Positions 1 through 52,031 of a stretch of 60,134 bases of DNA are shown piece by piece; the stretch's first letter is position 1; every line of letters starts with the position of its first letter. Below the pieces are notes generated by a model, which was not told where the DNA came from, made no database searches, and worked only from the letters and a program-made list of their open reading frames with translations. The stretch is from a virus (lineage: Duplodnaviria; Caudoviricetes), in IMG/VR virus record IMGVR_UViG_3300028025_004184, positions 1 to 60,134 of that record; one strand, 5' to 3'. Both the position numbers and the translations under genes were made by a program.

Positions 1-131
1 AGGATAGCCATATTAATCTGGTCTAGTTGCGATCTTAAGTTTTTAGCCTCTTCACTTGTCCAGCCATAAAACTCAACGTAAACATCTAATTTCTTTTCGA
101 TTGTTTCAACTTTTGCTTGTAAATCTTTCAT
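1..131 (-). CDS. hypothetical early protein, truncated by the window edge (MKDLQAKVETIEKKLDVY...)
   Basis: ATG at 131 with AAAGGA RBS, sigma70-like promoter upstream, frame open to position 1. Confidence 0.6.
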   Translation of the reverse strand, partial: MKDLQAKVETIEKKLDVYVEFYGWTSEEAKNLRSQLDQINMAI

Positions 132-169
132 ATAATTTCCTTTGTTTTGTTGTTCGTTTCCTTAAAGAG

Positions 170-198
170 ATATTACCAGAAATGAAATAATGCGTCAA
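170..198 (-). promoter_or_regulatory. sigma70-type promoter
   Basis: TTGACG-N17-TAATAT on the minus strand with TG extended -10. Confidence 0.65.
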
Positions 199-231
199 CA
201 ACAAAGTGACAATCTCCTAACTTTTTTATAG

Positions 232-245
232 CACCCTCATATAAT
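232..245 (+). promoter_or_regulatory. variant of the phage late-promoter motif upstream of ncRNA A
   Basis: CACCCTCATATAAT, one mismatch to CACCCTTATA. Confidence 0.4.
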
Positions 246-269
246 GAGGATAAAGACTCGCATTGACTT

Positions 270-643
270 TAGTCGGGACCGTGAAAAAAAGCAGACCTTA
301 GACCTTTTAAGCTCTGTCAGCGTATGCCCCTGAGATAGCATAACTTGTCATCGTGGGATAATGAGACAAGCGGAATGCCCCTAAATCAATGACAATTTAC
401 GCCAAGGTTGATGAAACGAGACTAGTTGGCACAGACTTTGCAAGGAAAGTGTTGAGTACTTGGAAAGGCATAAAACGGCATGTCAAGCAATGACAGCTTA
501 GTTCTTTTGCGCCCTATTGTCAAATTAAAATCATTTATAAAGGAAAACAGCCTAGGCATAACCTAAGCTGTTTTAAAGGTAGGATAAGACTCGCCACCAG
601 CGTTTTGACGGCCTGAAAGGGCCTCTGGTGACTTGCCCGACTA
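270..643 (+). ncRNA. putative structured ncRNA A (family unidentified)
   Basis: Closing helix TAGTCGGG (270-277)/CCCGACTA (636-643), several internal hairpins, no long ORF, motifs shared with 40699-40960. Confidence 0.55.
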
Positions 644-651
644 GTAGTGTA

Positions 652-744
652 TTAGTTGATCTCGAAGGCTTTGAGCAAAAGCTCTGATCTTGAGATTATG
701 TTAAGTGTTATTAAAAGTATCACTAAGCCTATGTAATTTCTCAT
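652..744 (-). CDS. 30-aa hydrophobic peptide (MRNYIGLVILLITLNIISRSELLLKAFEIN)
   Basis: AAGGGG RBS and sigma70-like promoter at 766-794; below the ORF track cutoff. Confidence 0.45.
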   Translation of the reverse strand: MRNYIGLVILLITLNIISRSELLLKAFEIN

Positions 745-765
745 ATTATCCCCTTGCTTAAAACA

Positions 766-794
766 ATATTACATCACAACGCATCAAAATACAA
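766..794 (-). promoter_or_regulatory. sigma70-type promoter
   Basis: TTGTAT-N17-TAATAT. Confidence 0.5.
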
Positions 795-863
795 TAGCCA
801 AACAAAATAAAGTTTTGTCAAGCCATTTATTTGCAATCTTGAAAATAATTCCCTTGACAAGCA

Positions 864-1092
864 TTGGCACGAGTCTTGCATTAGCAAAGCCAATTACCAG
901 CGTATATTCTTGCAAAGAAAATGTTTTGGCATGGCTTTTGCGTTATTGCATTGCTTTCCAGAAATGCTATAATAAGTTAACACCAGCGAAACAAGGCAAG
1001 TTGGATAAAAGAGCCTGACAGTAATCAAGATTAGGGGAAAAGCAAGCAAAAAAAAATAGGCAAGAAACTTGCATCTGCAAGGCCCATGCCAA
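864..1092. promoter_or_regulatory. cluster of sigma54 (-24/-12) consensus sites
   Basis: TTGGCACGAGTCTTGCA 864-880 +, TTGGCATGGCTTTTGCG 926-942 +, TAGGCAAGAAACTTGCA 1057-1073 +, TTGGCATGGGCCTTGCA 1076-1092 -; all GG-N10-GC. Confidence 0.65.
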
Positions 1093-1095
1093 GCT

Positions 1096-1117
1096 AAAAA
1101 AGCTCCCCGAAGGGAGC
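1096..1117 (-). terminator. intrinsic terminator
   Basis: GCTCCC-TTCG-GGGAGC then T6 on the minus strand, just after ORF 1133-1378. Confidence 0.8.
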
Positions 1118-1132
1118 GTAGCGACTGGAGAG

Positions 1133-1378
1133 TTAAACCATCGCCATAGCTGATTTTAGCACGTTGGGCTTAAGGATAGCGTCTGTTAGCATTTGGAGTT
1201 GATTCTTGTCTTCAAGTTCCATGCCAAAGTGGTTGAACAGCATATCATTGACCAGATCAGTCTCGTTGCCTCGCCACCCAAGTTCGTCAAGCTCATAGTC
1301 AAGGTCTGAAAACATTGCCAAGAATTGTTGGCGTTGTTGCTTGTTTAGTCTCTTAAGTATTTGTAATAAATAAATCAT
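1133..1378 (-). CDS. hypothetical early protein
   Basis: ORF with AGAGGA RBS. Confidence 0.7.
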   Translation of the reverse strand: MIYLLQILKRLNKQQRQQFLAMFSDLDYELDELGWRGNETDLVNDMLFNHFGMELEDKNQLQMLTDAILKPNVLKSAMAMV

Positions 1379-1400
1379 GTTGATCCTCTTTGTTTAGTAA

Positions 1401-1598
1401 TTAAATCTTGTTTACTAGCCAGTAAAAACTCTTATTTTGCTCTTCAATATCTTTGCTAGGCTTTGTTACTGGAATGTCCACCATGTTTGATTGATGGTCA
1501 TCAGCCAAAACTTGATAATTACCATCTGAAAGTAAAACAAGCCTGACATAATCCTTTTGAGAAATTGAATATTCTTTTTTAAGTGTAGCGTAGTTCAT
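1401..1598 (-). CDS. hypothetical early protein
   Basis: ORF with AAGGGG RBS and its own promoter. Confidence 0.7.
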   Translation of the reverse strand: MNYATLKKEYSISQKDYVRLVLLSDGNYQVLADDHQSNMVDIPVTKPSKDIEEQNKSFYWLVNKI

Positions 1599-1629
1599 TT
1601 ATTTCCCCTTTGTTTTTTCGTCCTATGTC

Positions 1630-1657
1630 ATTGTACCACACTGACAGGTAGCGTCAA
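1630..1657 (-). promoter_or_regulatory. sigma70-type promoter
   Basis: TTGACG-N16-TACAAT with TG extended -10. Confidence 0.6.
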
Positions 1658-1660
1658 GCT

Positions 1661-1933
1661 TTATTTGTTAAGCTCATCTAGTTCGTCCTGTAGGTTAAAC
1701 TTTTGCTTTCTCAGCTCATAAAACTTAATTTGTAGCAGTCTAGTGGTTTCCGAGAAAGATGGCATGTCCTTTGAAGGCATTGGAAAAAAATCTCTCTCGT
1801 AAAGCCCCATGGCATTTAATATCTTTTGAATGGCATCTAGTTCGTGCTGTAGTCTTGCGATATTACACTGCAACGTGCTTTTCTTTTGCACTTGTGACAT
1901 GTTTAGTATAAACTCTTTTGTTGGCGTTTGCAT
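1661..1933 (-). CDS. hypothetical early coiled-coil protein
   Basis: ORF with AAGGGG RBS and its own promoter. Confidence 0.7.
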   Translation of the reverse strand: MQTPTKEFILNMSQVQKKSTLQCNIARLQHELDAIQKILNAMGLYERDFFPMPSKDMPSFSETTRLLQIKFYELRKQKFNLQDELDELNK

Positions 1934-1966
1934 TGTGTTCCCCTTGTTGTTGTCTTGATATACCTC

Positions 1967-1994
1967 ATTGTATCACACTGCATTAATTCTGCAA
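1967..1994 (-). promoter_or_regulatory. sigma70-type promoter
   Basis: TTGCAG-N16-TACAAT; shares CAGTGTG-TACAATGA with the 1630-1657 promoter. Confidence 0.55.
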
Positions 1995-2175
1995 CTTCAA
2001 TGACTTAGACGTTTCCTCCAGTGTTATCAACAACTTAGCAGGATAAAATCTTTAGAATAAACTGCTAAAGCATTGTAAACACACTTTTTGCTAAGCTAAG
2101 CTATTGAATTTCAAAGATTCTTTGATTTTATGTTTTTTGCTATAATTTAGGAGTGAGATAAACAAAGGGGAGAAT

Positions 2176-2295
2176 ATGAAAGAATATTTTGTTATCTTTG
2201 ATGCGAATGATAAAGTGATTGCCTATGTTGACCGTAAAGGTCTAAACGATTGGCTTGAAAATGTAGAAGGTGAGTGGTATTACACTATGGCATAA
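2176..2295 (+). CDS. 39-aa protein (MKEYFVIFDANDKVIAYVDRKGLNDWLENVEGEWYYTMA)
   Basis: AAGGGGAG RBS; TGcTATAAT extended -10 at 2138-2146; below the ORF track cutoff. Confidence 0.6.
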   Translation: MKEYFVIFDANDKVIAYVDRKGLNDWLENVEGEWYYTMA

Positions 2296-2398
2296 TAATT
2301 GCATAAGCAAGAACCATGCCAAGGAAGGCAAGGCTTCTGGCACGAAGCTTGCAAGTGCAAGATCAATGCCAAGCCAACCCATGCAAGGCTGATGCCAA
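2287..2398. promoter_or_regulatory. second cluster of sigma54 consensus sites
   Basis: Sites at 2287-2303 +, 2306-2322 -, 2337-2353 + (CTGGCACGAAGCTTGCA), 2356-2372 -, 2382-2398 -. Confidence 0.7.
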
Positions 2399-2418
2399 GC
2401 CGGAGCCAGCCAAGGGCA

Positions 2419-2431
2419 GGGGGGGGGGGGG
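2419..2431 (+). repeat. G13 homopolymer
   Basis: 13 consecutive G. Confidence 0.9.
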
Positions 2432-2495
2432 ATTAGAGTGTGGAGATGGATGTGAATATGCTTCACAATATATTTCCCACTTTATAGTTAGTCTG

Positions 2496-2726
2496 TCACA
2501 ACAATTCTAGCTCAAGGCTACTTAGCTCATCAATCACTGACCAGTCGCTAGGATAAAGATATACGGTACGCCCATCCTCATTATTCGACACAATCACAGC
2601 TGGGTAGTAAATATCCTCTCCAGACGCTCTAGCTTCGGCCACAATCCTAACTATGTAGGTATCCTCGTTCCAAGGGTCATACAGGGAATGCTTGATCTTA
2701 TAGACCCTATTAACCTGCAATTTCAT
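2496..2726 (-). CDS. small protein, C-terminus SSLELELL
   Basis: Member of a chain of overlapping ORFs. Confidence 0.75.
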   Translation of the reverse strand: MKLQVNRVYKIKHSLYDPWNEDTYIVRIVAEARASGEDIYYPAVIVSNNEDGRTVYLYPSDWSVIDELSSLELELL

Positions 2727-2938
2727 AGCAGCTCCACTTCCAAGGAGGTGAGCTTAACGACGTTATCCCAGTATGAGGGGGTAATAGCCACTATGCCGTA
2801 GTTATAGCCACTATCTGAGCTTAACTTACATTTGTAGGATTCGCTAAGACTATCTTCAATTTTATTAAGGGTATAGACTATGTATATGTCAATAGGTATG
2901 AGATCTTGCCAGACTTTATAATAAGTATTTAATTCCAT
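2723..2938 (-). CDS. small protein, C-terminus TSLEVELL
   Basis: ATGA overlap; resembles 2496-2726. Confidence 0.75.
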   Translation of the reverse strand: MELNTYYKVWQDLIPIDIYIVYTLNKIEDSLSESYKCKLSSDSGYNYGIVAITPSYWDNVVKLTSLEVELL

Positions 2939-3156
2939 TAATAAAGCTCCGCTTCCAGACTGGACAGCCTTCGTATCTCTACGTCATAGAAATAATAGCC
3001 CATTGGTATTAGAACCATTACTCCACCAAATGCGAACTCAATGTCAAAGTATCTATCATAGGAAAAGCCATATATGTAATTACAAGCAGTTATCCTAACT
3101 ACTTCGTCATTCATCCAGAACATATCATTCTCTTTAGTGTCTGGAGGAAAGCTCAC
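2938..3156 (-). CDS. small protein, C-terminus SSLEAELY
   Basis: Overlapping start/stop codons. Confidence 0.7.
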   Translation of the reverse strand: MSFPPDTKENDMFWMNDEVVRITACNYIYGFSYDRYFDIEFAFGGVMVLIPMGYYFYDVEIRRLSSLEAELY

Positions 3157-3353
3157 CCAAGTTCCTTTCCAAGAAGGGTTTTCCTGAATGTTAGCTCATC
3201 TTCTAAAGCCTTGACTTCCGTATAATACTCAGAACTCCACATAGCGTACATATCAAGCAATGTCTCTAAGTCATCAGTTTCTAATTGCATTATAGCACTT
3301 CTGTATTTAGAATAACTGCTTTCCGAGTCCTGTGTTTTTAAAGAAATGGACAT
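3153..3353 (-). CDS. small protein, C-terminus TLLGKELG
   Basis: ORF in the chain; true start may be further downstream. Confidence 0.65.
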   Translation of the reverse strand: MSISLKTQDSESSYSKYRSAIMQLETDDLETLLDMYAMWSSEYYTEVKALEDELTFRKTLLGKELG

Positions 3354-3552
3354 GCTTCTCAGCTCTCTTGTATTCTGGAGTATTATGGACTTGCCTATAA
3401 TCTCCGTATAATCGTTGGGTTAAAATTCTAGCATTAACGTCTTCAGTTATCTTATATGCTTTATCTAAAAGCATAAATTCCACACACTTATCAAATAGTA
3501 TTGTACTGGCTTCTTCGATTGACATCGTATTCCAGTTGGGTAATGTCGTCAA
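3307..3552 (-). CDS. small protein, C-terminus TGLGKQLF
   Basis: ATGA overlap. Confidence 0.7.
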   Translation of the reverse strand: MTTLPNWNTMSIEEASTILFDKCVEFMLLDKAYKITEDVNARILTQRLYGDYRQVHNTPEYKRAEKHVHFFKNTGLGKQLF

Positions 3553-3737
3553 TTCAATTCTTTTCCTAGTAGGGTAGAGTTTAGTCTGTCACGTATAAGC
3601 TTCGCTTCTTCCATAGCGTCTATAATCTCAATTGCTGTCATTCCAGATACTCTGTCTTCTAGAGTTTGCATATCTAGATCGCAAAATCCATTAGATACAA
3701 GGTGATGAACTAGCCAATCTTGTTGTTTCTGACTCAT
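3549..3737 (-). CDS. small protein, C-terminus TLLGKELN
   Basis: AAGGA RBS. Confidence 0.7.
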   Translation of the reverse strand: MSQKQQDWLVHHLVSNGFCDLDMQTLEDRVSGMTAIEIIDAMEEAKLIRDRLNSTLLGKELN

Positions 3738-3738
3738 A

Positions 3739-4095
3739 CTAATCCTTTATGGTTACAGTAAATCCTACAAGCTTACCGTCTTTCATCTTCTTTTTAACAC
3801 TAAATGAGCCACCTTGCAAGTGAGTATTTAATAAAACTCCTCTGCCCGGTAGGTATGGCCCAAGTTCCACGTTAGTCTCAGTGTCACCTACCATGTCAAA
3901 CGTCCTATCAATAGTATTAAAAGGATTTAGAGGGTCTTTTGGCGTTACATCCACTGTCTCACCTGTGGCAGGATCTAGCTCAACTACCTTACTTCCTGCG
4001 AAGAATTGGCAGTCTCCGATGAAGATTACCCCGCTTTGAATGCTGCCTTTGAGATCCACTTTATTTTTTCTTGATTTTTTAGTTTTATTTGTCAT
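3739..4095 (-). CDS. hypothetical protein
   Basis: AAGGAG RBS, ATGA overlap. Confidence 0.75.
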   Translation of the reverse strand: MTNKTKKSRKNKVDLKGSIQSGVIFIGDCQFFAGSKVVELDPATGETVDVTPKDPLNPFNTIDRTFDMVGDTETNVELGPYLPGRGVLLNTHLQGGSFSVKKKMKDGKLVGFTVTIKD

Positions 4096-4301
4096 AGCAA
4101 CTCCTTAATTAGGGATGGAGGGTCGAGTATTAGCGACTTCCTCAGTACAGTATATCCATCTTTATCAATATTTTTAAATACATAGCCTTCAGACTCACAA
4201 TACTCACAGAAGGCCATATAGCGTTTGAAGAACTCTGACCATATAACCTGACCTTCTACCAGATTATCCAGCTCTAATCCAACGGTCTTTTTCTTAGACA
4301 T
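4092..4301 (-). CDS. small protein, C-terminus PSLIKELL
   Basis: ORF in the chain. Confidence 0.7.
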   Translation of the reverse strand: MSKKKTVGLELDNLVEGQVIWSEFFKRYMAFCEYCESEGYVFKNIDKDGYTVLRKSLILDPPSLIKELL

Positions 4302-4576
4302 GATAATTTACCCTTAATGGTAGTGTTACTTGTAGTAATTTCAATGGATTCCTCTAATGCTTGCTCAGAAAGCTTCTTTCCAACGTGCTCTTTTAGGAAA
4401 TCCTCGAAGTCTGATGTCAAATATCTTTGATTTAGAACAGCTTGCTCATATTCAAAGGTAACAAGCCAGCGTTCTATCCAATCTTCCATGGCTCTTTCAC
4501 GCATTTCTGTACAGTTCCAGTGTTTTTGGTCTGTCATCTGTGCAATTTTACGTAATTCCTTCAAGGCATCTTTCAT
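4274..4576 (-). CDS. hypothetical protein
   Basis: ORF in the chain. Confidence 0.7.
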   Translation of the reverse strand: MKDALKELRKIAQMTDQKHWNCTEMRERAMEDWIERWLVTFEYEQAVLNQRYLTSDFEDFLKEHVGKKLSEQALEESIEITTSNTTIKGKLSCLRKRPLD

Positions 4577-4813
4577 TTATCTCAATTCTGCCAGCAATGG
4601 TTGATGTTTTTCTATATTATCCACAAAATCTTGGTATTGTCGCATAGTGCTCGGACTTACTAGGTAGATATAAGCGTCTTCTCTGTCATAATACCCAGAA
4701 GCATCCCATAAATAGGCTATATTATCTGGAATATATAGCTGACACTGGACTTCTTTTCCAGAAAAATAGATGTGTCGTAGGTTCTCAGTTGTTATCTTTA
4801 GCATATCTGTCAC
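4577..4813 (-). CDS. small protein, C-terminus QPLLAELR
   Basis: ORF abutting the next gene. Confidence 0.65.
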   Translation of the reverse strand: MTDMLKITTENLRHIYFSGKEVQCQLYIPDNIAYLWDASGYYDREDAYIYLVSPSTMRQYQDFVDNIEKHQPLLAELR

Positions 4814-5198
4814 TTTTTATCTAGTTGCCTATACTTTTATCTGTCACTAGCACAGGAATTTTGCTACACCTTCAAATTGGTATGTGTCACTCTTCTGAGT
4901 CTTCAGAAAGCCCAAAATTGGCTGGTCCGAAGTTTTGTAGATTATAATGCATTACTATTGCCTTTGCAAGCTCGTTAGCATTGTGACGGACTAATTCCTC
5001 GTTGCCTGAGAAATCCCATAGAACTAGCTCGGTTATCATAACCCCAACTGGCATTATTAGTCTCTTTTGTTTTTTTAACGCATTACGCTTAGTTTTTTGT
5101 TTTCTCATGCTACTACTTAAGGGGGTTATATCACAAATCAGGAGATTTGAAAAGGTAGGACTTTCAGGTGCGATTTTGATGCAGGAAGCAACAAAGAG

Positions 5199-5208
5199 CA
5201 CCCTTATA
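5199..5208 (+). promoter_or_regulatory. putative phage late promoter
   Basis: CACCCTTATA at the start of the plus-strand block, 4 nt before an ATG. Confidence 0.6.
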
Positions 5209-5212
5209 AGAT

Positions 5213-5470
5213 ATGGGAAAAGCAAAGAAAGATGAATATAATGAAGAAACCTTATCAGGATTGCTAACTGGAGCATTTGAGGCTATACTTCCAGAAAGGA
5301 AGGAAAGAGATAAAACTCCAGAAGAGCTTCGTGATGAGGAGTTGAAGTATGAGCTTAGAAAATCCGCATTAGGTAAAACTGCCGGATGGGGAGACTATAA
5401 GTTTAATTGGGAAGAAGAAAGAGATAAAAAACTAAACTTACCTGTAAAGCCTAGAAAGTATAAAGATTAG
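5213..5470 (+). CDS. hypothetical charged protein
   Basis: First ORF of the plus-strand block. Confidence 0.7.
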   Translation: MGKAKKDEYNEETLSGLLTGAFEAILPERKERDKTPEELRDEELKYELRKSALGKTAGWGDYKFNWEEERDKKLNLPVKPRKYKD

Positions 5471-5472
5471 AT

Positions 5473-5727
5473 ATGAAAAAGAAAAGATGGTCTAGCTTAA
5501 AAGAAAAGCTTTCTTGTAATAGTCCGAAGAGAACCTCTGGCGAAAATAAGTCTTGGGTTGTTAAGGGTTGTGAAGGCGGAGAAGAGAAGATCGTAAGATT
5601 TGGCGATCCTAACATGCCAGATAAGTCATATGTCGCAGAACGTAGAAAAAATTTTCGTGCTCGCCACAACTGTGACGAGAAAAAATCAAAACTTAAGGCT
5701 GGTTACTGGTCTTGTAAAAAGTGGTAA
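5473..5727 (+). CDS. small basic phage protein
   Basis: VRFGDPNM...RRKNFRARHNC...AGYWSCKKW, a pattern I recall from many phage head modules. Confidence 0.75.
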   Translation: MKKKRWSSLKEKLSCNSPKRTSGENKSWVVKGCEGGEEKIVRFGDPNMPDKSYVAERRKNFRARHNCDEKKSKLKAGYWSCKKW

Positions 5728-5730
5728 TCA

Positions 5731-6540
5731 ATGTCTAGTGTAAGAAAAAAAGCTCTTGAAGATTTTGCTAAAGATGTGGAAAGAGGGATACCTCTAGCAG
5801 AGGATTACGTTGGAAAAACAGGCGATATTTATGATGACGCACTTCGAGCTAGAAATTTAGCGGAAGAATCATTGGCTCAAAAAGTATTGGATAATACTTC
5901 TATACCTATTCCGGATAGAAACGCTCCATTGTCTAAAAAAGAAGACTTCCTAAATCAAATGCTGCAAGGTCAGTACCCAGAATTAAAAAAGCAAGTGCAA
6001 TTTAAAGATATGCAGGGTAATCTTGGGTTATATGATAAAGGTAATATATATCTTAATAAAGAAATGGCAAAAAATAGAAGCCCTCAAAAATTAGTGGCCG
6101 ATACTTTCCATGAAGGCGGTCACGCATACGACGATGTTAAAAAACTTGTAACTCCTGATCAAGTTGAGGATTTTAATAAAGAACTTAGAAAATTAAAAGC
6201 TTCCGGCTTTGATTTAAAAAATGCTGATCCAGCGCAGATATATGAACTTATTGCCAATAAGCATCATGCTCAAGTACCAAATTTACGTGAAGGTACTTTT
6301 GGTCTAGGTGCTCTTAAGTCATATCTAAAGTCTGGCACATTTAAAGCTTTACCATTCGTTGGTCCAGCAATTGGTGCAGCTGCTGCCTTATCTTCTGGAG
6401 ACGCATCTGCTGCAGTTCCAATTCTTTCAGAGGCTGAGTCTTTAGGCCCTGAAAAAGGTTCTGAAGATTATGAGATTGAGAATCCACAAAGAAATCCAGA
6501 AGCTAGACGAGCTGCTTTAGAAAAGTTAATGAGGAAGTAG
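5731..6540 (+). CDS. putative zincin metallopeptidase-domain protein with shared C-terminal tag
   Basis: GLYDKGNIYLN...FHEGGHAY (HExxH); C-terminal hydrophobic segment and ARRAALEKL. Confidence 0.65.
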   Translation: MSSVRKKALEDFAKDVERGIPLAEDYVGKTGDIYDDALRARNLAEESLAQKVLDNTSIPIPDRNAPLSKKEDFLNQMLQGQYPELKKQVQFKDMQGNLGLYDKGNIYLNKEMAKNRSPQKLVADTFHEGGHAYDDVKKLVTPDQVEDFNKELRKLKASGFDLKNADPAQIYELIANKHHAQVPNLREGTFGLGALKSYLKSGTFKALPFVGPAIGAAAALSSGDASAAVPILSEAESLGPEKGSEDYEIENPQRNPEARRAALEKLMRK

Positions 6541-6541
6541 C

Positions 6542-7630
6542 ATGGCAGAAGATAATGTAGGAAAGAAACTATTAAAACAAACTGATGTTCTAAATAAAGA
6601 TACTTCAGCAAAAATTCAAGCATTAAAAGAAATAAGAAATACTCAAGATTTTAAATATGGAAATTTAGCAAAAGCTTTAAAAGAAGAAATTTTAAATACA
6701 ATTCCAGAAGGATCTATTACAGCTAAAGATTTTTCTAAAATTGATAAAGCTATTAAAGAAATCCCAGAAAATGAAATTCTAGATCTGTATAATAGATTTA
6801 CAAGTTTGCCGGATGAAGAAAGACGTAAATATAGAATAGGTTCTGGGGCTTTCAAAAACGCTTATCAATTACCAGATTCTGATATTGTACTTAAAACTAG
6901 TCCGGCAGAGAAAAATCTTAATATTTTAGAAAAAGATTATTTAACTCATAAAATTACAAACAAACTTGGAAAAAGAGGAGATATAGAAACTCCTATGCTT
7001 GTAAAATCTCCAGATAAAGAGGCAGTTTTAATGCAGAGGAGACTTGTAACCCCTGATGATATTTTAAAATTTAAGAACGCCGCTGGAGATTCTGGAATAA
7101 CTAAAATTAATCCAGAATTTTATGATAAAGCTTCTTTTGGTGGAGGACTTCAAGGAGAGATAGATAATTTAATTAAGGGATATACACCAACTTCTATGCC
7201 AGAAGATGTCCATGCAGGAAATGTAGGAATAGATCCAGTTACAAATAAAATGAAAATTTTTGATACTTTAGGCTCTGTAGATGCGATGGATGTTGTAGAA
7301 AAAAAAGCTACTAGACTTTCTAATATACTTAATAATTTAAAGAAACCTACTATTTATCGCTCAATTCCTATCATTGGTCCAGCTGCTGGATTAGGACTAG
7401 CTGCTATGTCTGGAGATGCGTCTGCTGGCATTCCTATTTTATCAGAAGCTGACGAATTAGGAAATCCCGATGAAGAAAAAGCAATGCTTCGTGATATTAA
7501 TCAAAAAAATAGAGAGAAGAAAATACTCCAAGCTATTCCAGAACAAAATCGTGTAGCTGTAGAAAAAGATCTAGAGGATCAAAGACTTGGGGTTAGACGT
7601 TCTGCAATAGAGGACTTATTAAGGAAATAA
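6542..7630 (+). CDS. putative protein-kinase-like fold protein with shared C-terminal tag
   Basis: IGSGAFKNAY (Gly loop), IVLK (catalytic Lys), DVHAGNV (catalytic loop), KIFD (DFG equivalent). Confidence 0.7.
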   Translation: MAEDNVGKKLLKQTDVLNKDTSAKIQALKEIRNTQDFKYGNLAKALKEEILNTIPEGSITAKDFSKIDKAIKEIPENEILDLYNRFTSLPDEERRKYRIGSGAFKNAYQLPDSDIVLKTSPAEKNLNILEKDYLTHKITNKLGKRGDIETPMLVKSPDKEAVLMQRRLVTPDDILKFKNAAGDSGITKINPEFYDKASFGGGLQGEIDNLIKGYTPTSMPEDVHAGNVGIDPVTNKMKIFDTLGSVDAMDVVEKKATRLSNILNNLKKPTIYRSIPIIGPAAGLGLAAMSGDASAGIPILSEADELGNPDEEKAMLRDINQKNREKKILQAIPEQNRVAVEKDLEDQRLGVRRSAIEDLLRK

Positions 7631-7631
7631 T

Positions 7632-8414
7632 ATGGCAGAAGATAATAAAAAAAATAGTTTAGCGTCATTAGCAGCATATTCAGCTGCTCTTAGAGAATTA
7701 TATGATTCTACCCCGGACAGATTAAGCAAGGCCTCTGCAGGAGAATTTAGCGATATTATAAATAAAGCTGTAGCAAATGATGCTATGAAAAAAGCTAATA
7801 TAACGCCATATACTCCAGAAGAGTATTCCAAATTCAAAACATTTTTATCAAAGGATAAGGAATCTGGCTATGCTATTAAGCCCGGTTCCATGACTGATGC
7901 CGGTAAGGATGAGTTAATTTCCGTATTTTCTAATAAAAGAGGTAGAGGTCCGGGGATACTAGAACATGCGGTAGATGTCGGAGGAGCTAAGCAATTAGAT
8001 GCTTTTGACATAAACAATAAACTACCTAGCTTATACGGTAAAGAATTTAATGAAACTTATAGATATAAATTTGATCCGCAATACGCCCCTGCTGATTGGA
8101 ATTATGAAAAAGTAGGAACTCCGGATGTTATAGGAATGCAGTTAGATCCAGAAAAAGCTGCTATCAGAACTGGTCGTCAAGTAGGAAAATCTATTGCTAA
8201 ATTTGGACTCCCAGCATTGGCATTAGGTGCGGCATCTGCCTCCGAATCTCCAGAGCAAGCTTTGATGGACATGATAATACCCGGTGGAGTAGAATCTGTG
8301 GGATCTGCAGATGATGATGCTATTATGAGAGGCGAAGCTCAGGGATATAAAAATTATCAAAATAGCCCTGCTGCTAAGGCTAGACGAGCTGCATTAGAAA
8401 AGTTAGGAAAATAA
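7632..8414 (+). CDS. putative GNAT-like domain protein with shared C-terminal tag
   Basis: LISVFSNKRGRG...LDAFD...LPSLYGKEF resembles GNAT motifs A/B; ends ARRAALEKLGK. Confidence 0.5.
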   Translation: MAEDNKKNSLASLAAYSAALRELYDSTPDRLSKASAGEFSDIINKAVANDAMKKANITPYTPEEYSKFKTFLSKDKESGYAIKPGSMTDAGKDELISVFSNKRGRGPGILEHAVDVGGAKQLDAFDINNKLPSLYGKEFNETYRYKFDPQYAPADWNYEKVGTPDVIGMQLDPEKAAIRTGRQVGKSIAKFGLPALALGAASASESPEQALMDMIIPGGVESVGSADDDAIMRGEAQGYKNYQNSPAAKARRAALEKLGK

Positions 8415-11682: not shown

Positions 11683-13842
11683 ATGGCTTATTTTGATAAA
11701 GACGAGTATTTTGCAGCTAGTGACGATGAGACACTTGTCTTATATTTGCAAAAAAAATCAGACGCTTGGTTTAATTCCTTAATTTCTACAGACTACTTAG
11801 ATAAGATTAAAAGAAGCTGGCAAGCCTATTATGGATTTTATTATGAAGGTGGCCACGCCATTACTTTCGGTGGAGAAACTGGAGAGCTAGTAAATTTGCC
11901 AATGAACCATTACGGTAACATTGCAAGCCATATTCTTACTATGGTAACAGCTACTAGACCATCTTTTCAAGCAAGATCTGTTAACACTGATGTAAAATCT
12001 CAAATACAAACAAACTTAGCGAATGGTTTGTTAGAATATTACATGAGGGACAAAAGACTTGAGCAAGATCTTAAGAGAGCTGTTGAATATGCTATTATCA
12101 TGGGTTCCGGCTATATTAAAATGGAGTGGAATGCCACTACTGGTGAGATATATGACTTTATTGAGCCAGAATATAAGCCACTTGTTGATGAAAGTGGAGA
12201 AATTCAGTATGATGTTGACGGACAGCCTGTATATGAAACTGACGAAAATGGCGAGAAAGTTGAGCTTAGAGCAGGAGTTCCACTATATAGCGGTGACATC
12301 ATTTTTAATGTTATGTCGCCTTTTGATGTAGTATTTGATCCAACTAAGTCAGATAGTAACCATGACTGGCAGCTTTGCCGTAGTTTTAAAAATAAATATG
12401 ATCTAATCGCTAAATATCCTGAGTTTTCTGATAAAATCAAAGCTCTTAAAACAAAGTCTGATCTTAACACTACTCGCATAACTATGTCAGCTTACGATGA
12501 GACTACGGATGTTCCGGTATATGAATTTTTTCACAGACCAACAGAGTCTCTTCCTAAAGGGCGTTATGTTCTTTATCTAGACTCTGATATTGTACTAGAA
12601 GATACTGTGCTAGTTTATAAGCACCTGCCAATTTTTAGAATTGCTAGTAGAGATATCCTAGGTACTCCGTTCAGCTACACAGCAATGTTCGATTTACTTC
12701 CAATTCAAGACGCAGTTAACTCTCTGTACTCTACAATCATGACCAATCAGAATACTTTTGGTGTTCAGAATGTCTATGTAGAAAGAGGTTCTGATGTTCA
12801 AATGGAGCAAGTTGCTGATGGGTTAAATTTTATCCAAGGTAATCCGGGATTCCAACCTCCTAAAGCTTTAAACTTAACATCTACACCAGCTGAAATATTT
12901 AATTTTTTGAAAATGCTAGAGTCATCGATGGAGACTATATCAGGCGTAAATTCTGTCGCACGAGGTAATCCAGAGTCTCAGCTTAAATCGGGTAATGCCC
13001 TAGCATTAATTCAATCTCAAGCTCTGCAGTTTATTTCTGGGCTACAGCAATCGTATATCCAACTGATTGAAGATGTTGGAACTAATGTTGTGGAGCTTCT
13101 TAAAACTTTTGCTAAGACTCCTAGAGTTGCGGCAATTGCTGGTAAGTCTAATGTAACTTATATGAAAGAGTTTACATCAGATGATTTAAGTTCTATTACA
13201 AGAGTAATTGTAGACGCTGGTAACGCACTAGCTCAAACTACAGCTGGTCGTGTTGAAATGGCCAGTCAAATGATGCAAATGGGTATTATTACTACTCCTG
13301 AGCATTATATATCTGTTATTAATACAGGTAAATTAGAAACTATGACTGAAGGTCAAAACAAGGAGTTGTTGCTTGTTAGAGCTGAAAGAGAACGCCTTGT
13401 GGACGGTACAACTCCCGTGGTGGCTGTACTTACTGATTCTCATTCATTGCATATTAGAGAGCATAAGGCTGTTCTCGCAGATCCTGATTTACGTATGGAT
13501 GCGGAGCTTGTTCAACGAACGCTTGCGCATATTCAAGAGCACATTAACATCCTCTCTGATCCTAATGTTGCTAATATTCTTACTATGTTAGGAGAGCAGC
13601 CACTAGGCCCTCCTATGGGAACTCCTCCAGCTCCGGGCACAGTAGCTCCAGAGCAACCAATGCAACAAGGTCAAGAGCAGATACCTCCTTTATTAGAAAA
13701 TCCTCAAGCTCAGAGCGTTGCAGCAACTGCTAATCAAGGGCCTCTGCCATCTCCTGCGCAACCTGCAGGTGTTTCTCAAGGAGTACTGCCTCCTCAACCA
13801 ACAACGCCAGAACAGCTGGCTGCAAATAACTTAGGAGCATAA
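11683..13842 (+). CDS. portal protein (P22-like)
   Basis: Follows terL; GSGYIKMEW, SPFDVVFDP, METISGVNSVARG; Pro/Gln-rich tail. Confidence 0.88.
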   Translation: MAYFDKDEYFAASDDETLVLYLQKKSDAWFNSLISTDYLDKIKRSWQAYYGFYYEGGHAITFGGETGELVNLPMNHYGNIASHILTMVTATRPSFQARSVNTDVKSQIQTNLANGLLEYYMRDKRLEQDLKRAVEYAIIMGSGYIKMEWNATTGEIYDFIEPEYKPLVDESGEIQYDVDGQPVYETDENGEKVELRAGVPLYSGDIIFNVMSPFDVVFDPTKSDSNHDWQLCRSFKNKYDLIAKYPEFSDKIKALKTKSDLNTTRITMSAYDETTDVPVYEFFHRPTESLPKGRYVLYLDSDIVLEDTVLVYKHLPIFRIASRDILGTPFSYTAMFDLLPIQDAVNSLYSTIMTNQNTFGVQNVYVERGSDVQMEQVADGLNFIQGNPGFQPPKALNLTSTPAEIFNFLKMLESSMETISGVNSVARGNPESQLKSGNALALIQSQALQFISGLQQSYIQLIEDVGTNVVELLKTFAKTPRVAAIAGKSNVTYMKEFTSDDLSSITRVIVDAGNALAQTTAGRVEMASQMMQMGIITTPEHYISVINTGKLETMTEGQNKELLLVRAERERLVDGTTPVVAVLTDSHSLHIREHKAVLADPDLRMDAELVQRTLAHIQEHINILSDPNVANILTMLGEQPLGPPMGTPPAPGTVAPEQPMQQGQEQIPPLLENPQAQSVAATANQGPLPSPAQPAGVSQGVLPPQPTTPEQLAANNLGA

Positions 13843-29212: not shown

Positions 29213-29398
29213 ATGGGCTGGAAATTTGATCCTTTCGCAATGGATATTGTCTGGGTTACATCAGTTACTATTGTTGAAAATGTTGGAGATATAGATATGG
29301 GAACTATGGATAGCGATATTGCTATTGACTTAGGTTCCAGAGAGGACAGCCCTTCGGGGATTGACCAAGGTTTGAGAGTTTACGATGGCGATATTTAA
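29213..29398 (+). CDS. small structural protein
   Basis: ORF in operon. Confidence 0.55.
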   Translation: MGWKFDPFAMDIVWVTSVTIVENVGDIDMGTMDSDIAIDLGSREDSPSGIDQGLRVYDGDI

Positions 29399-29762
29399 AG
29401 CACCTAAATTAACTACTGCTCAAAGAAATACCCTAGTATTAGAGGTAAGTGAATTGGTCTATGATTTAGATCAAAAAGCCTTTTATGGAGGAGATGGTAG
29501 TGCTCAAGGTGGATTTCTAGTAGGTGCTACGTCAGGGTTTATTGTTGAAAAAGTTGAATTAACTCAACAGAATGTAGATGACAAATTTGTGACGCTTGCG
29601 CAGACACCCTTAATTCCTAGTGCAGTCATAGTTGTTCCAGAGGGAGGAATAGCTCAGGTAAATGGAATTGATTTCCAGATAGAAGGGAATAAGCTACTTT
29701 GGAGTGGACTAGGGCTGGATAATTTTTTAGACGAAAACGATGTGCTGCTAGTGCAGTACTAA
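29385..29762 (+). CDS. structural protein (fibre-associated)
   Basis: TTAQRN...ELVYDLD...GDG fibre N-terminal motif; GIDF.I.GN.L.W C-terminal module. Confidence 0.6.
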   Translation: MAIFKAPKLTTAQRNTLVLEVSELVYDLDQKAFYGGDGSAQGGFLVGATSGFIVEKVELTQQNVDDKFVTLAQTPLIPSAVIVVPEGGIAQVNGIDFQIEGNKLLWSGLGLDNFLDENDVLLVQY

Positions 29763-41059: not shown

Positions 41060-43441
41060 ATGGGAATGCGTTCAAATACAAATCAAGTTGGTCAAGGAAT
41101 GGGCACAGCCCTGACTGAGGAAGAAAAGAGAAAGCAGGAACAAGAACAAGCTCCACAGCCTCAAATCCAACAAACAACATCCGCAGCTCCTCGCATCGGA
41201 GAAGCTCAGGCAACAGCCATGAAAGCGGCTCCAAAAGAGCAGAAAGCTGGAACTGGTACTTTCGCTAATCTTAAAAGTTATATACAGGCTGCTCAGGGCG
41301 GAGGTCAGCAAAGAATTGCTCAGGCCGCAACGCAAAAAGTTCAGAATGTGGCAACTGGTGCTCAGAAGGGTATCCAGCAAGCTCAGAACGTATTTGGAAA
41401 AAAAGTAGAGGCAGGAAGTTTGTCTGGAATAGCTGCTCCGGGAGGAGTAGAGGCGGTTGGAAAAGAAGCCCAAGATATTATTAACGCAGCTAGAAAGGTT
41501 ACATATCAAGCTCCACAGCCAGCTACTGCACCTGCTACTCAGGCCACGGCTCCTGCCACAACAGCTGCAACAGCTCCTTCAGGTGAACAACCACAGCAGT
41601 CAGTTGTAGAACCCACAGTTGCTCAAGCTCAACAGTATTTTACTCCAGAACAGCAAAAGCGTTTTGCAGACATTATTAACGCACAATATGGTGGCCCAGC
41701 ATCTTTACAAGAAGCTGGACTTTATAGCGACATTGCTAAAAAAGCCAGAACAGCTCAAGAAGCAATTGGTCAAACTCAGACAGCCGCTGGAAGAGAGCAG
41801 TTGTTAAGAAATATCTTCAGCCAAGGTAGAGATTATACTAGAGGGCAATCTAAGCTAGATGCTTTACTTTTAAACACATCTCAGCAAGGTGTTGGAGAAT
41901 TACAGAGTCAGGCAAAGCAAGCAGGTAACATTCAGCAGCAAGCAGAACAAGCGCAGACACAATCTGCAAATGAAGCAGCTCAGAGAGCTAAAGAAATTTC
42001 AGATGTGCAACAAGCTTCTAGAAAAGCATTTTTAGAAGGTAGAACTGCTGAAGAAGCAGCTACTGAAACTAGAATGGACAAGCTTATAAAAGATCCAGCA
42101 TTAGATGCTTCTGGAAATAAAATACCTAAACTAGATATGGAAGGAAAGCCTATAGTAGATGCAGCTGGTAATCCAGTTTATCAAACTCAGTGGGACCAGC
42201 TTCCAGAATATTTTAGAGATATTATTAGAAATAAAGAAGCTAATAACAAAGCTATGCAAGCAGAGGCGTTTGCAAATTTAGACTCGTCAACTGGACTCAA
42301 TGAAGCAGGATATAAAAAAGCTCAGGCTAATCTCAAGGCTCAGCAAATAGCATTAGAAAATGCTAAAAATATTAATATGTATAGAGCTATAGGTGGATTG
42401 GCTCCTGATGAAAATGTGGATGAAAAAATTAAAATAGCTCAGCAAAATTTAGATGCTGCAAAATCTGACTTAGCTGGCTACTCAGATTATTTAAAACAGC
42501 GTAAAGATATCCAGAATATGAGCATGAAGCAGCTTAGATTAAGCCCTGAAGAAGCGGCTATTCTGGGGGTATCTTCTGGTGAAGGATTTTATAATGAACT
42601 GCCAACATTAATAAAAGACGTTAACGCAGAAAGATCAAGATTAATTACAAAAGATGAATTTGCTAGACAACAAGCATTAGCACAGTTAGCAGGTACAGAT
42701 ATTTCAAGAGCTTTACAAAAAGATTTAATGTACACAGACGCAGAAAAAGCAGGATCTCAGACATTAAGTAGTTCTTTAGATACTCAAGCAATAAGAAACG
42801 CTCTTAATGAAGCACAAACAAAATTTAAAGAAAGTGCAGAGGCCGCTAATTTAACTGGAAGTGGTAAAAAGAAAGTGTCCAGAGGTAACTGGGCGGGAAC
42901 AAGAACTAAAACATATACAGCTTCACAAGAAGGTAATGTTGCAGATATGTTGCGTCAAGCAGGATATGATGTTTCTGCAGAAAGTCCTGAAGCAGCTAAA
43001 TCATTGCTAACAGATAAAGAAGCTTTAGCTAATTATTTAGGAGCAACAGATACTTCTAGAGGAGATTCTGGGAGTATGTGGGCAGAAGGTGCTGCAAGAA
43101 CAGGAACAGGAGCTGCTATAGGAGCTGCTCTTGGATCATATGTTCCGGTTATAGGAACAGGTGTAGGAGCCGCTATAGGTAGTATGTATGGATCTATTCT
43201 TGGAGGAAATTCTACTCTTTCTAATGTAGTAGGAAATCTAGGTGGAGGTAGAATGAGTGATTCTGCCATGGCAGAAGTAGGTAAAGGTACTGCGAAAGAA
43301 TTAGCAATAAAAGATTTATATAATAAATATAATAAATATTTAGCTGGACAAGGATTTGAAAATAGAGCTAATATAGTAGACTCTGATATTACATCAGCTA
43401 GATCTGCTGCGCTTCAAGATTTATTACGTAGACAAGGCTAA
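41060..43441 (+). CDS. internal virion / ejection protein
   Basis: Ala/Gln-rich helical protein with C-terminal glycine zipper; position after tail genes. Confidence 0.65.
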   Translation: MGMRSNTNQVGQGMGTALTEEEKRKQEQEQAPQPQIQQTTSAAPRIGEAQATAMKAAPKEQKAGTGTFANLKSYIQAAQGGGQQRIAQAATQKVQNVATGAQKGIQQAQNVFGKKVEAGSLSGIAAPGGVEAVGKEAQDIINAARKVTYQAPQPATAPATQATAPATTAATAPSGEQPQQSVVEPTVAQAQQYFTPEQQKRFADIINAQYGGPASLQEAGLYSDIAKKARTAQEAIGQTQTAAGREQLLRNIFSQGRDYTRGQSKLDALLLNTSQQGVGELQSQAKQAGNIQQQAEQAQTQSANEAAQRAKEISDVQQASRKAFLEGRTAEEAATETRMDKLIKDPALDASGNKIPKLDMEGKPIVDAAGNPVYQTQWDQLPEYFRDIIRNKEANNKAMQAEAFANLDSSTGLNEAGYKKAQANLKAQQIALENAKNINMYRAIGGLAPDENVDEKIKIAQQNLDAAKSDLAGYSDYLKQRKDIQNMSMKQLRLSPEEAAILGVSSGEGFYNELPTLIKDVNAERSRLITKDEFARQQALAQLAGTDISRALQKDLMYTDAEKAGSQTLSSSLDTQAIRNALNEAQTKFKESAEAANLTGSGKKKVSRGNWAGTRTKTYTASQEGNVADMLRQAGYDVSAESPEAAKSLLTDKEALANYLGATDTSRGDSGSMWAEGAARTGTGAAIGAALGSYVPVIGTGVGAAIGSMYGSILGGNSTLSNVVGNLGGGRMSDSAMAEVGKGTAKELAIKDLYNKYNKYLAGQGFENRANIVDSDITSARSAALQDLLRRQG

Positions 43442-49665: not shown

Positions 49666-50229
49666 TCATGATCCTACAATCCAATGTTTTTCATTAGCTT
49701 TATACTTCGGAAGTTCTTCTTGCTCAAATAAAGCCTTATCTAAAAACCTAATTCTATACTGTGGATAAAGCATAAGATAGCCATCATTTGTCTGAATGGC
49801 GTGTAACTGTTTCCAGTGAGTAGGGTGGCGAGAAAACCCCTCTCCAACAAAATCTATAGTAAAAAGATACTTTCCAGACTTGGCTGGTATCATATCAGGC
49901 TTAACTTCACACTCAGCGTACCTAAGAGTTTCCATAACAAAAAAGTCAATGTCATCGCTTACACAGTCCCACATCTGAGCGTCTTGAAGGTTTATAAGCC
50001 CATTAAACTCGTCCTCTCTAAAGGTTATGGCATGTGCCGGTAGTCCAGTAAAAAGAGCACCATTGTCCAATAAAATGCTAAATTGCAAAGCTTGGTTTTG
50101 TCTAGCCCTTACAGACACTAAATGTCCAGCCGTTTTGCCATAGAAGTTAGAGTCATCATTAAATAAGAACCTATTCCAAACATACACACGAATTGGAGGC
50201 AAGTTAGCGTTACTCATCCCCAAACCCAC
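49666..50229 (-). CDS. hypothetical phage protein
   Basis: Long ORF; probable start MSNANLPP at 50217. Confidence 0.75.
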   Translation of the reverse strand: MGLGMSNANLPPIRVYVWNRFLFNDDSNFYGKTAGHLVSVRARQNQALQFSILLDNGALFTGLPAHAITFREDEFNGLINLQDAQMWDCVSDDIDFFVMETLRYAECEVKPDMIPAKSGKYLFTIDFVGEGFSRHPTHWKQLHAIQTNDGYLMLYPQYRIRFLDKALFEQEELPKYKANEKHWIVGS

Positions 50230-51143
50230 TTAGGTTTACCACTCAACACTACCATAGAGTCTAGCGTGAATTGTTTTGGTTTAATCGCTAAGCTAGGGGC
50301 CTCAAACTGAGCGTTTAGCAAAGCTTCATCCAGTACACTGTGTAAGCCCCTAGCTCCTAATCCCTTCTCAATAGCCTTCTGCGCTATGATGTTAATAGCA
50401 CTATCTTCTACCACAAGCTCAATACCTTCGCTCAAAAACCACTCTTTAAACGAGTTTAGAATAGACCCCTTAGAGTCACGTAGGATCTTCCTGTAATCGT
50501 CAAATTTAAGCTCCTGAAGCTGTGTGATAACCGGGAATCTTCCAAGAAACTCAGGTATCATGCCAAAGTCCGTTAAACTCTGCACACTTGACGACTCTAG
50601 CCCTATAAAAGCACCAGAGCATATAAACATAATATCTTTAGTGTTCATCTTCTTATCATACTCGCCATTCTGAGAGTATTTAGAAATATATGGAACATCA
50701 CTACCTTCCAGTAGTTTTAGAAGTGACTGCTGCACTCCAAGACCATTAACATCTGGTCCATTTCCGTCATTAGATTTTTTACGAAGCTTATCTATCTCAT
50801 CGATGTATATAATAGACTTTGAGGCCTTATACTCGTTGCCTTCGCATATACCCAGTAAGTCTGTTATAAGTTCTTCTACACTTCTTCCCTGATATCCAGA
50901 GGAAGTGAACTGAGTTGCGTCACTTGTCAAAAAGTTAACGCCTAGTATTTGAGCCAGTATGGACACTAGATATGTCTTGCCACACCCAGTAGGTCCGATT
51001 AATAGCACGTTAGACTTTTTAATAGTACTGCCGTTCATTCTTTTAAAATGGTTATAAGCGGCCACAGACAAGGCTCTTTTAGTTTTCTCATGACCGATAA
51101 CGTACTCATCTAGCTGCTTTTTAATTTCTTCTGGAGTTTTCAT
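50214..51143 (-). CDS. clpX: ClpX-like AAA+ ATPase lacking the N-terminal Zn domain and IGF loop
   Basis: LDEYVIGH, KSNVLLIGPTGCGKT, IYIDEIDK, GVQQSLLKLLEG, PEFLGRF, GARGL. Confidence 0.9.
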   Translation of the reverse strand: MKTPEEIKKQLDEYVIGHEKTKRALSVAAYNHFKRMNGSTIKKSNVLLIGPTGCGKTYLVSILAQILGVNFLTSDATQFTSSGYQGRSVEELITDLLGICEGNEYKASKSIIYIDEIDKLRKKSNDGNGPDVNGLGVQQSLLKLLEGSDVPYISKYSQNGEYDKKMNTKDIMFICSGAFIGLESSSVQSLTDFGMIPEFLGRFPVITQLQELKFDDYRKILRDSKGSILNSFKEWFLSEGIELVVEDSAINIIAQKAIEKGLGARGLHSVLDEALLNAQFEAPSLAIKPKQFTLDSMVVLSGKPKWVWG

Positions 51144-51145
51144 TC

Positions 51146-51700: not shown

Positions 51701-52031
51701 ATTGTTTCGCAGCCTTTAAAATATCTTGGTTAACTTCAAAAATACCCTCTTTGATCATATAATACCGCTGATGGTTTTTTCGGTAATCTGGAAAGTGTTT
51801 TCCAAATGTTTGGAAGAAGGTTATTTTCTTAGCCTTCTTCTTAACTTGATCAACTCTCCAGATAGATCTATATACGTAGAATATTAAATAATTTGGTACA
51901 GCCTGAGTTCCAGATTCGATACTTAGATCCTGTATAAAACTTAACACATCTCTATTATCTTCTCTCTGCTTTCTTTGGTCTCTAGGCTTTTCTTCAATTA
52001 ATTTCAATAACTCTTCAATAGATTTTGGCAT
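51642..52031 (-). CDS. hypothetical protein, possibly DNA-binding
   Basis: ORF with AAGG RBS; basic and aromatic composition. Confidence 0.7.
   Translation of the reverse strand: MPKSIEELLKLIEEKPRDQRKQREDNRDVLSFIQDLSIESGTQAVPNYLIFYVYRSIWRVDQVKKKAKKITFFQTFGKHFPDYRKNHQRYYMIKEGIFEVNQDILKAAKQYDKQHWQSKKAQKKLSVPE

Follow-up and report, generated by a model that had tools for sequence, protein, structure and literature searches.

We analyzed a viral contig (Duplodnaviria; Caudoviricetes; IMG/VR record IMGVR_UViG_3300028025_004184) that carries, within its first 2.5 kb, a cluster of sites resembling the -24/-12 element of the bacterial sigma factor sigma-54 (RpoN). The whole stretch, further called the window, is the complete IMG/VR record; it is linear, 60,134 bases long, with a GC content of 36.6% and a CheckV completeness estimate of 71%. 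An original prediction, made from the letters of the sequence, had listed ten sites, and we found all of them at positions within 1 base of those given (Table 1; coordinates begin at the T of TGGCA). For scoring we required GG-N10-GC and counted 11 positions of TGGCAC-N5-TTGCA, the core of the sigma-54 consensus. Beyond the ten, we observed an overlapping eleventh site, 2393(-), and a weak partner, 877(-). Six of the listed sites form three face-to-face pairs of a single geometry, as had been predicted, with an 18-base offset and the centre TTGCA-NN-TGCAA.

The sites are arranged in two clusters on either side of a leftward operon of three genes (1933 to 1133). Cluster A consists of sites 427, 865 and 927 and pair 1, and every unpaired site in it points rightward. 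Cluster B consists of pairs 2 and 3 and sites 2382 and 2393, and here every unpaired site points leftward. Site 927 abuts a sigma-70-like promoter (946-973), and a transcript from this promoter would run for about 75 nt before it met pair 1. Cluster B starts on the stop codon of a 39-aa gene and is followed by a run of 13 G and by the 3' end of a leftward gene block (5276 to 2496), which is convergent with the 39-aa gene; we did not find any intrinsic terminator at this junction, between 2296 and 2495. Sigma-70-type promoters had been predicted for the nearby genes, and a consensus scan gave two of them, 198-170(-) and 1657-1630(-). Further sigma-70-like elements were recognized by eye at 946-973(+), 2138-2146(+) (an extended -10) and 1994-1967(-).

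Table 1. Positions of the sigma-54-type sites and of other features in the window. Scores are matching positions out of 11.
Feature	Position	Strand	Remarks
Sigma-54-type site, 11/11, TTGGCACAGACTTTGCA	427..442	+	Counterpart in relative L006 at 981
Sigma-54-type site, 11/11, TTGGCACGAGTCTTGCA	865..880	+	L006 has a pair-like version at 1426
Weak opposite partner of site 865, 8/11	877-892	-	Site scan
Sigma-54-type site, 9/11, TGGCATGGCTTTTGCG	927..942	+	L006 counterpart at about 1535
Face-to-face pair 1, centre TTGCA-TC-TGCAA	1058..1091	1058(+) 9/11, 1076(-) 10/11	L006: 1666/1684
Face-to-face pair 2	2288..2321	2288(+) 10/11, 2306(-) 9/11	Site scan, relatives
Face-to-face pair 3	2338..2371	2338(+) 11/11, 2356(-) 10/11	Site scan, relatives
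Two overlapping leftward sites	2382..2408	-	2382 10/11, 26 bases from 2356; 2393 9/11
Sigma-70-like promoter, TTGCAT-N16-TATAAT with TG extension	946..973	+	By eye; not in consensus scan
Intrinsic-terminator-like hairpin	1102..1117	-	Ends operon 1933 to 1133
Three small genes, 81/65/90 aa, no Pfam family	1133..1933	-	Between the site clusters
39-aa gene with strong ribosome-binding site and own extended -10 promoter (2138-2146)	2176..2295	+	
G13 run	2419..2431	+	Sole G/C homopolymer of at least 8 in the contig; G8-G16 there in relatives
DNA polymerase A fragment	59709-60020 and 3-131	-	Rest in missing ~21 kb, or split gene

Statistics and conservation of the sites

We checked the enrichment of the sites against shuffled controls. 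The pattern TGGCAC-N5-TTGC with up to 2 mismatches gave 49 matches in the window versus 31.6 ± 5.2 in the controls, and none of the 100 shuffles reached 49. When at most 1 mismatch was allowed, 9 of the 11 matches fell in 427-2397. The first 2.5 kb holds all three sites at 11/11, 11 of the 17 at 9/11 or more, and seven of the eight at 10/11 or more, these seven being concentrated in 3% of the contig. In 300 first-order Markov genomes the mean number of sites at 10/11 or more was 0.42 (maximum 3), and the densest 2 kb held 1.3 sites at 9/11 or more on average (maximum 3), as compared with 11 observed. Further, 2000 simulations with the composition of bases 1-2600 gave a mean of 0.055 sites at 10/11 or more (maximum 2) versus 7 observed.

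Relatives of the window phage in other samples are 70-85 kb long. In those with 85-94% identical portals, the site clusters lie at an unchanged distance upstream of the portal gene. Side-by-side reading placed array B at the same position in four relatives (L001, L006, L010 and L014), where it has 2-5 sites with at least one face-to-face pair, a leftward surplus and a G8-G16 run. The cores are preserved in all of them, but the relatives differ in the spacers, in how many sites there are and in the small gene upstream. Cluster A sites are retained in L006 and G033, and the stretch after site 427 is conserved without indels in one relative, L006. The window sites are confirmed to be non-random and to be kept in relatives, and on sequence grounds their conservation follows the pattern of a binding-site cluster under selection, not that of a structured RNA.

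We also considered the pairs as hairpins, cruciforms or terminators and rejected this possibility: the N4-5 spacers are non-complementary, there is no co-variation, and no T-run follows.

Motif, spacing and distribution

Bacterial -24/-12 promoters recognized by sigma-54 include glnAp2, nifH and pspA. The consensus that Barrios et al. gave in 1999 is reportedly mrNrYTGGCACGrNNNTTGCW. In the array, as in the bacterial promoters, the GG and GC doublets are exactly 10 bases apart, within TGGCAC-N5-TTGCW and with the core TGGCAC-N5-TTGCA, and the flank preferences are the same. We assessed the flanks in 756 distinct viral sites chosen solely for TGGCAY-N5-TTGCA, at positions that had not been selected. 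The base before TGGCA was T or C in 80%, the base after TGGCAY was G or A in 96% (C 1%, T 0%), the next base was a purine in 79%, and T or A followed TTGC(A) in 78%. This agrees with the flank preference of the consensus, and the ten sites of the window show the same trend.

The array differs from the bacterial promoters in its layout. Those stand singly before a gene, with an activator site 80-150 bases upstream, whereas the array packs about ten sites into 2 kb, half of which belong to overlapping face-to-face pairs, and few genes lie downstream. Neither PF00158 (activator) nor PF04552 (sigma-54) was found above cut-off in any of 30 viral records, for which, outside the window, the gene calls are crude open reading frame (ORF) calls. 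Upstream activator sites were sought as NtrC-like sites only. In all 8 genomes examined, none with 2 mismatches or fewer was observed out to 400 bases from the arrays. With up to 3 mismatches, 427-2400 of the window has a single one, which overlaps pair 1.

Spacing was recorded among the viral matches listed, which comprise 69 face-to-face, 96 back-to-back and 128 tandem distinct pairs. Face-to-face gaps of 2-5 bases were found in 41 of the 69 pairs (13, 13, 8 and 7 for gaps of 2, 3, 4 and 5, respectively). Back-to-back gaps were 6-10 in 61 of 96, with none below 6, and tandem gaps were 9-13, which is a period of 25-29 bases, in 87 of 128, with 4 below 9. In each arrangement a second mode lies about 10 bases further out. 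A tandem period of 26-29 bases is present also in the window (2356/2382) and in L006. These exclusion zones and the helical periodicity suggest that neighbouring sites would be occupied together, on defined faces of the helix. Among 125 clustered sites, 62 belong to overlapping face-to-face pairs and 63 are unpaired.

The pair pattern was found at 33 viral loci in IMG/VR with GC contents of 34-59%, and 24 distinct loci were left after removing 9 near-duplicates. The adjoining genes are unrelated (HNH, Zot, lysozymes, SAM lyase). In 596 Gb of bacterial and archaeal genomes, a slightly broader pair pattern matched at only 2 loci. The first of them lies within a dehydrogenase-like coding frame and is a coincidence. 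The other is on a 7,682-base Zot-encoding filamentous-phage contig, also held in IMG/VR, which is binned with a Burkholderiaceae genome encoding sigma-54 (Sigma54_DBD match, 210 bits). As far as these scans of sequence can tell, the face-to-face pair architecture is general and phage-specific. Site doublets are common in viral contigs, since the scan for each arrangement (face-to-face, back-to-back and tandem) gave at least about 120 viral loci. Five complete or near-complete genomes (G001, G008, G015, G019 and G024) have one cluster each, with 6 to more than 11 sites including a pair.

In G015 there are at least 5 tandem 26-base site units, and the apparent 127-base terminal repeat of this contig consists of such units. 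This 'direct terminal repeat' (L086 1-127 and L087 3874-4000) underlies the 'complete' class of G015; it may be an assembly artefact of the repeat array and not a genome terminus. In relatives of the window phage, too, contig ends fall inside repeat arrays, and therefore contig ends cannot be read as genome termini, against which a possible handle for staged genome entry, another idea of the original prediction, would have to be judged; the window itself is a linear, incomplete fragment.

An all-against-all blastp comparison of 7 array-bearing genomes gave no protein family common to all, although blastp can overlook small, fast-evolving proteins and remote relatives; the widest family was DNA polymerase A (5 of 7). 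No recurrent neighbour gene was found across the 24 loci, where the widest family occurred in 6. Because the motif is constant across composition and lineage and no protein travels with it, a conserved host partner is indicated. A sigma-54-using host, at which the original prediction hinted, is plausible for the window phage; analogous arrays are present in Pseudomonas phages, whose hosts possess RpoN, and in the phage contig binned with Burkholderiaceae. We consider it quite probable that the sites are sigma-54 recognition elements.

Palindromic pairs and phased repeats are also typical of operator or iteron arrays. The sites could belong to a phage or host protein other than sigma-54 that has a similar -24/-12 specificity, and the quasi-palindromes would then be dimer sites. 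The spacing modes about 10 bases apart would suggest face-specific contacts, and other repeats lie beside some arrays: tandem repeats of 9 to 22 bases in G024, L060 and Pseudomonas phage phiMK, TCGGAA-N7-TTCCGA in G001 and G024, and DnaA-box-like words in G008. Lambda-type operators and origin iterons resemble the array in being clustered, partly palindromic repeats in a control region. Unlike the array, they co-vary with a cognate phage protein and keep a fixed half-site spacing. Here, the same 16-base motif with its flanks is met again in phages of 34-59% GC that have no blastp-level protein in common, and a phage-protein operator is disfavoured because the specificity of a phage protein would be expected to drift. 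No cognate protein travelling with the sites was found in the 7 array genomes by blastp or across the 24 loci. Half-site spacing was not fixed among the 69 pairs; gaps of 2-5 rotate the halves by about 100 degrees, which a rigid dimer would not tolerate. In addition, many sites are unpaired or tandem, and the genes beside the window arrays differ among close relatives. We consider operators for another protein improbable, and the proposal of the original prediction that a phage protein with RpoN-like specificity binds here has lost ground, as the motif occurs in phages sharing no protein and the half-site gap varies from 2 to 5.

Copies of TCGGAA-N7-TTCCGA are clustered at G001 42735-42870 and G024 3120-3190 (contigs of about 44 kb), several in each, and the motif is absent from the other 482 loci. 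It might represent the sites of a regulator or activator.

The location of the arrays allows for a structural element as well, such as an origin, a pac or terminal region or an injection stop, at which sigma-54 would have an architectural or DNA-melting role only, or would not be used. The arrays lie in the longest gene-free, repeat-rich regions, iteron-like repeats adjoin those of G001, L060 and phiMK, 3-4 DnaA-box-like words with 11-base spacing stand beside that of G008, and several contigs break within arrays. Against this, window positions 1-2600 lack the DnaA-box cluster and the tandem repeats that would be expected of an origin. DnaA-box words were not enriched near the pairs as a whole (12 versus 9.4 expected in the 24 loci), and 4 of the 12 were in one locus. 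Contigs are expected to break at repeats as an artefact of assembly, and the non-complementary pair spacers do not favour a hairpin or cruciform. We regard a structural role as very unlikely. The DnaA-box-like words of G008 (29290-29335 and about 29630-29660, locus L058, including two that lie further on) look origin-like and were seen in this one phage only.

We observed the element in cultured phages. The sequence of locus L077 matches that of phiMK (Pakpunavirus, host P. aeruginosa PAO) at 100% identity. Between gp33 and gp34 of phiMK there is a gap of 630 bases without annotation, which holds the pair (record positions 12229-12262), and a third site is at 12399. Of 134 matching records, 119 cover most of the gap, at an identity of 91-100%. 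Among more distant relatives, whose hosts are P. aeruginosa, P. putida and P. syringae, the alignment is limited to the pair-containing stretch, in which the cores TTGGCA, TGC, GCA and TGCCA are invariant and the spacers vary. Other cultured carriers of the element are PAK_P1 and JG004 (P. aeruginosa PAO1/PAK) and Kassivere (P. putida KT2440); these phages are reported to use LPS. The phiMK layout resembles that of the window: a TATAAT promoter, a conserved purine-rich segment of about 65 nt, the pair, and an outward TTGACA-N17-TAGAAT promoter. A second 'cluster' near the right end of phiMK was dropped, as it consisted mostly of weak sites within coding sequence. In PAK_P5 (Nankokuvirus) no clear array was found, and for this reason the published PAK_P3 transcript maps are not informative. 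The accessible parts of the PAK_P4 transcriptome paper (PMC5563952) and of a review on small RNAs (PMC12197685) do not mention the element.

The purine-rich segment (L077 1930-2000; alignment A1, columns 133-197) is rich in GGAGG and almost invariant in phiMK, XD2, Kassivere and phiK7A1. GGA motifs are typical of Rsm/Csr-binding RNAs, which this segment of the Pseudomonas phages recalls, and we note it as a candidate small RNA.

Occupancy and promoter readings

Sigma-54 is of low copy number, and its holoenzyme forms stable, silent closed complexes that require an ATPase to fire. No other bacterial sigma factor is known to bind DNA alone, without core. We tentatively favour, as a possible reading, that the window carries a dense docking array for host sigma-54 which would act mainly by occupancy, as a sink and as a barrier. 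Host sigma-54, free or in holoenzyme, would bind the array in the early control region of the phage and form stable, silent closed complexes, and the array would not act as ordinary gene-proximal promoters. As a sink, it would park or soak up scarce sigma-54, with about ten sites per genome presumably multiplied by phage replication. As a barrier, it would stand at the borders of early transcription units, where pair 1 is placed beside the terminator of the leftward operon and pairs 2 and 3, with the G13 run, at the terminator-less convergent junction.

Many close-packed sites, as expected of a sink, were found: about ten in 2 kb, with 18-base-offset pairs and 26-base tandems. From the -24/-12 geometry, the face-to-face pair would be the tightest arrangement of two sites; two holoenzymes would exclude each other, and two molecules of free sigma-54 could be accommodated. 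Occupancy is favoured by the near-absence of the pair from bacteria, the maximal packing, the gene-free tandem runs, the absence of activator genes from the 30 records and of NtrC-like sites from the surroundings of the 8 arrays searched, and the position at unit borders. In the 24 distinct viral loci, strong sigma-70-like promoters within 400 bases of a pair pointed away from it in 20 cases and toward it in 2. The decoy and roadblock ideas of the original prediction fit the dense packing, the bacterial near-absence of pairs and the missing activator gene, and this fit is one of sequence. The original prediction also held that most sites have no gene placed to be transcribed. This stands insofar as most window sites have no ORF at promoter distance; it does not hold entirely, as the unpaired sites tend to be co-oriented with nearby outward sigma-70-like promoters and gene blocks.

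The same sites can be read as genuine enhancer-dependent sigma-54 promoters, poised and fired by an activator of the host or by an unrecognised one of the phage. They would form a second, condition-dependent promoter class for early operons and small RNAs, and the pairs would be compact two-way promoters with outward starts about 20 bases apart. Occupancy and poised promoters are not mutually exclusive.

Several observations weigh against occupancy alone, and some of them speak for promoters. Sigma-70-like promoters downstream of an unpaired site were co-directional with it in 34 of 43 site-promoter pairs, and those behind the site pointed the other way in 25 of 30. The counts lack independence and are inflated by tandem copies (the split per locus is about 10 to 4), and tandem duplication alone would keep orientation. 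The bias is nevertheless a difficulty for occupancy, because an orientation-blind sink predicts none. In the window, the unpaired sites of array B all face the leftward operon 1933 to 1133. Site 427 precedes the stretch conserved in L006 and a terminator-like hairpin (548-574) present in the window only, and together these resemble a small transcription unit. The barrier part is weakened by the fact that elongating polymerases dislodge promoter-bound polymerase ('sitting duck' interference). The gain from draining sigma-54 is not evident either, because its regulon varies between hosts.

Further points in favour of promoters are the full consensus including the flanks, the tandem position of sites 865 and 927 with promoter 946-973, and site 3271(+) of G024, which lies about 60 nt upstream of a gene start with a ribosome-binding site. 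There is also a precedent. In the record of Pseudomonas phage YuA (NC_010116) three fragments are annotated '-24/-12 consensus' with measured promoter activity, and PMC10914365, which cites Ceyssens et al. 2008, reports one sigma-54-like start site, P015. YuA relies on host sigma-54, as the array phages would. It differs in having three single, dispersed elements before structural genes, which score at most 9/11 in our site scan, and in having no arrays or pairs. The promoter reading is at odds with the absence of an activator gene from 30 of 30 viral records and of an NtrC-like enhancer from 8 of 8 arrays. In addition, 62 of the 125 clustered sites are in overlapping pairs, in which one polymerase would block the other, and pairs are essentially missing from bacterial genomes despite the very many real sigma-54 promoters there. 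No genes intervene between the four tandem pairs of L060 or between the tandem units of G015, of which there are at least 5, and most of the window sites are without an ORF at promoter distance. We consider poised promoters rather doubtful.

The working principle of a sink has cellular counterparts. The datA locus titrates DnaA, and 6S RNA titrates the sigma-70 holoenzyme. Like the proposed array, they withhold a scarce global factor by many high-affinity sites or by a mimic; unlike it, they are cellular and act on other factors, so that the likeness concerns the working principle and not membership. In a stronger form, which we hold to be somewhat unlikely, many unrelated phages would possess a dedicated DNA device, marked by the face-to-face pair, whose packed, helically phased sites capture host sigma-54, perhaps as two free molecules per pair, and would thereby drain the regulon or use the silent closed complexes as barriers or timers sensing phage copy number.

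In our literature searches we found neither arrays nor pairs of sigma-54 sites described for phages, nor a sink for this factor, and YuA was the sole phage with sigma-54-type promoters that they returned. We also know of no sink of this kind made of DNA. The palindrome SrpA of phage K5 (PMC5945682) was set aside as a different motif. What is new here is the restriction of the face-to-face pair to phages, the grammar of the spacing, the statistics on orientation and the example from cultured Pseudomonas phages.

The handling of sigma-54 by phages is almost unstudied, and the arrays, with their dense packing, pairs at gaps of 2-5 and 26-base tandems, are a recurrent, phage-restricted site arrangement. 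If they act by occupancy, this would be a new principle of takeover. A capture device, built on a pair that bacteria do not use, would be the first case of DNA serving as a sponge for a sigma factor and would add a new class to the elements of phage-host takeover. If they are promoters, many environmental phages would link early expression to host signalling via activators that they do not encode. Since the element is present in cultured phages (phiMK, the Pakpunavirus group and relatives on P. putida and P. syringae), the question of sink, barrier or promoter can now be tested at the bench.

Neighbouring features of the window phage

Genes of the window include those for a portal of the P22/SU10 type, a terminase, tail proteins and ClpP with an AAA+ partner, and DNA polymerase A is present as a fragment. 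We did not observe any nucleotide-level match between the window and deposited phages. The nearest portal match, 26% identical, is that of a Silvanigrella phage, in whose partial genome the array is absent. Searches with the DNA polymerases of two other array phages did not find a close cultured relative, and the window ClpP matched only viral clusters in a protein atlas. Rfam (gathering thresholds) and tRNA searches of the window gave no matches, and no RNA run was listed as containing the sequence of window positions 1-8000.

Comparison with G026 indicated that about 21 kb are absent between the two ends of the window. The family A DNA polymerase is represented only by its last ~90 residues, in a separate 103-aa frame near the contig end. 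The ClpP-family protease and a 309-aa Clp-type AAA+ ATPase, two genes away, lie at 50214-52809 (-). We considered the ATPase as an enhancer-binding protein and rejected it, as its PF00158 score is only 12 bits.

A conserved G-rich stretch follows the G13 run, which itself stands directly after array B. The run could be a spacer prone to slippage, could give the leftward RNA a C-rich entry site for Rho, or could form a G-quadruplex. The 39-aa gene sits rightward among leftward genes, and close relatives have unrelated small genes in the same slot, which resembles a moron-like site for cargo genes, with array B as its border. On the minus strand, 652-744 is a 30-aa hydrophobic ORF with a strong ribosome-binding site, and a similar peptide is present in L006.

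Just upstream of site 427, within 236-426, there is a hairpin (344-370) with the conserved loop CGTGGGATAATG. We compared it in four sequences only, the window and its relatives L006, L491 and L012, among which double changes keep the pairing at 3-4 pairs. The G-U pairs favour the plus strand, and the hairpin may be a small structured RNA.

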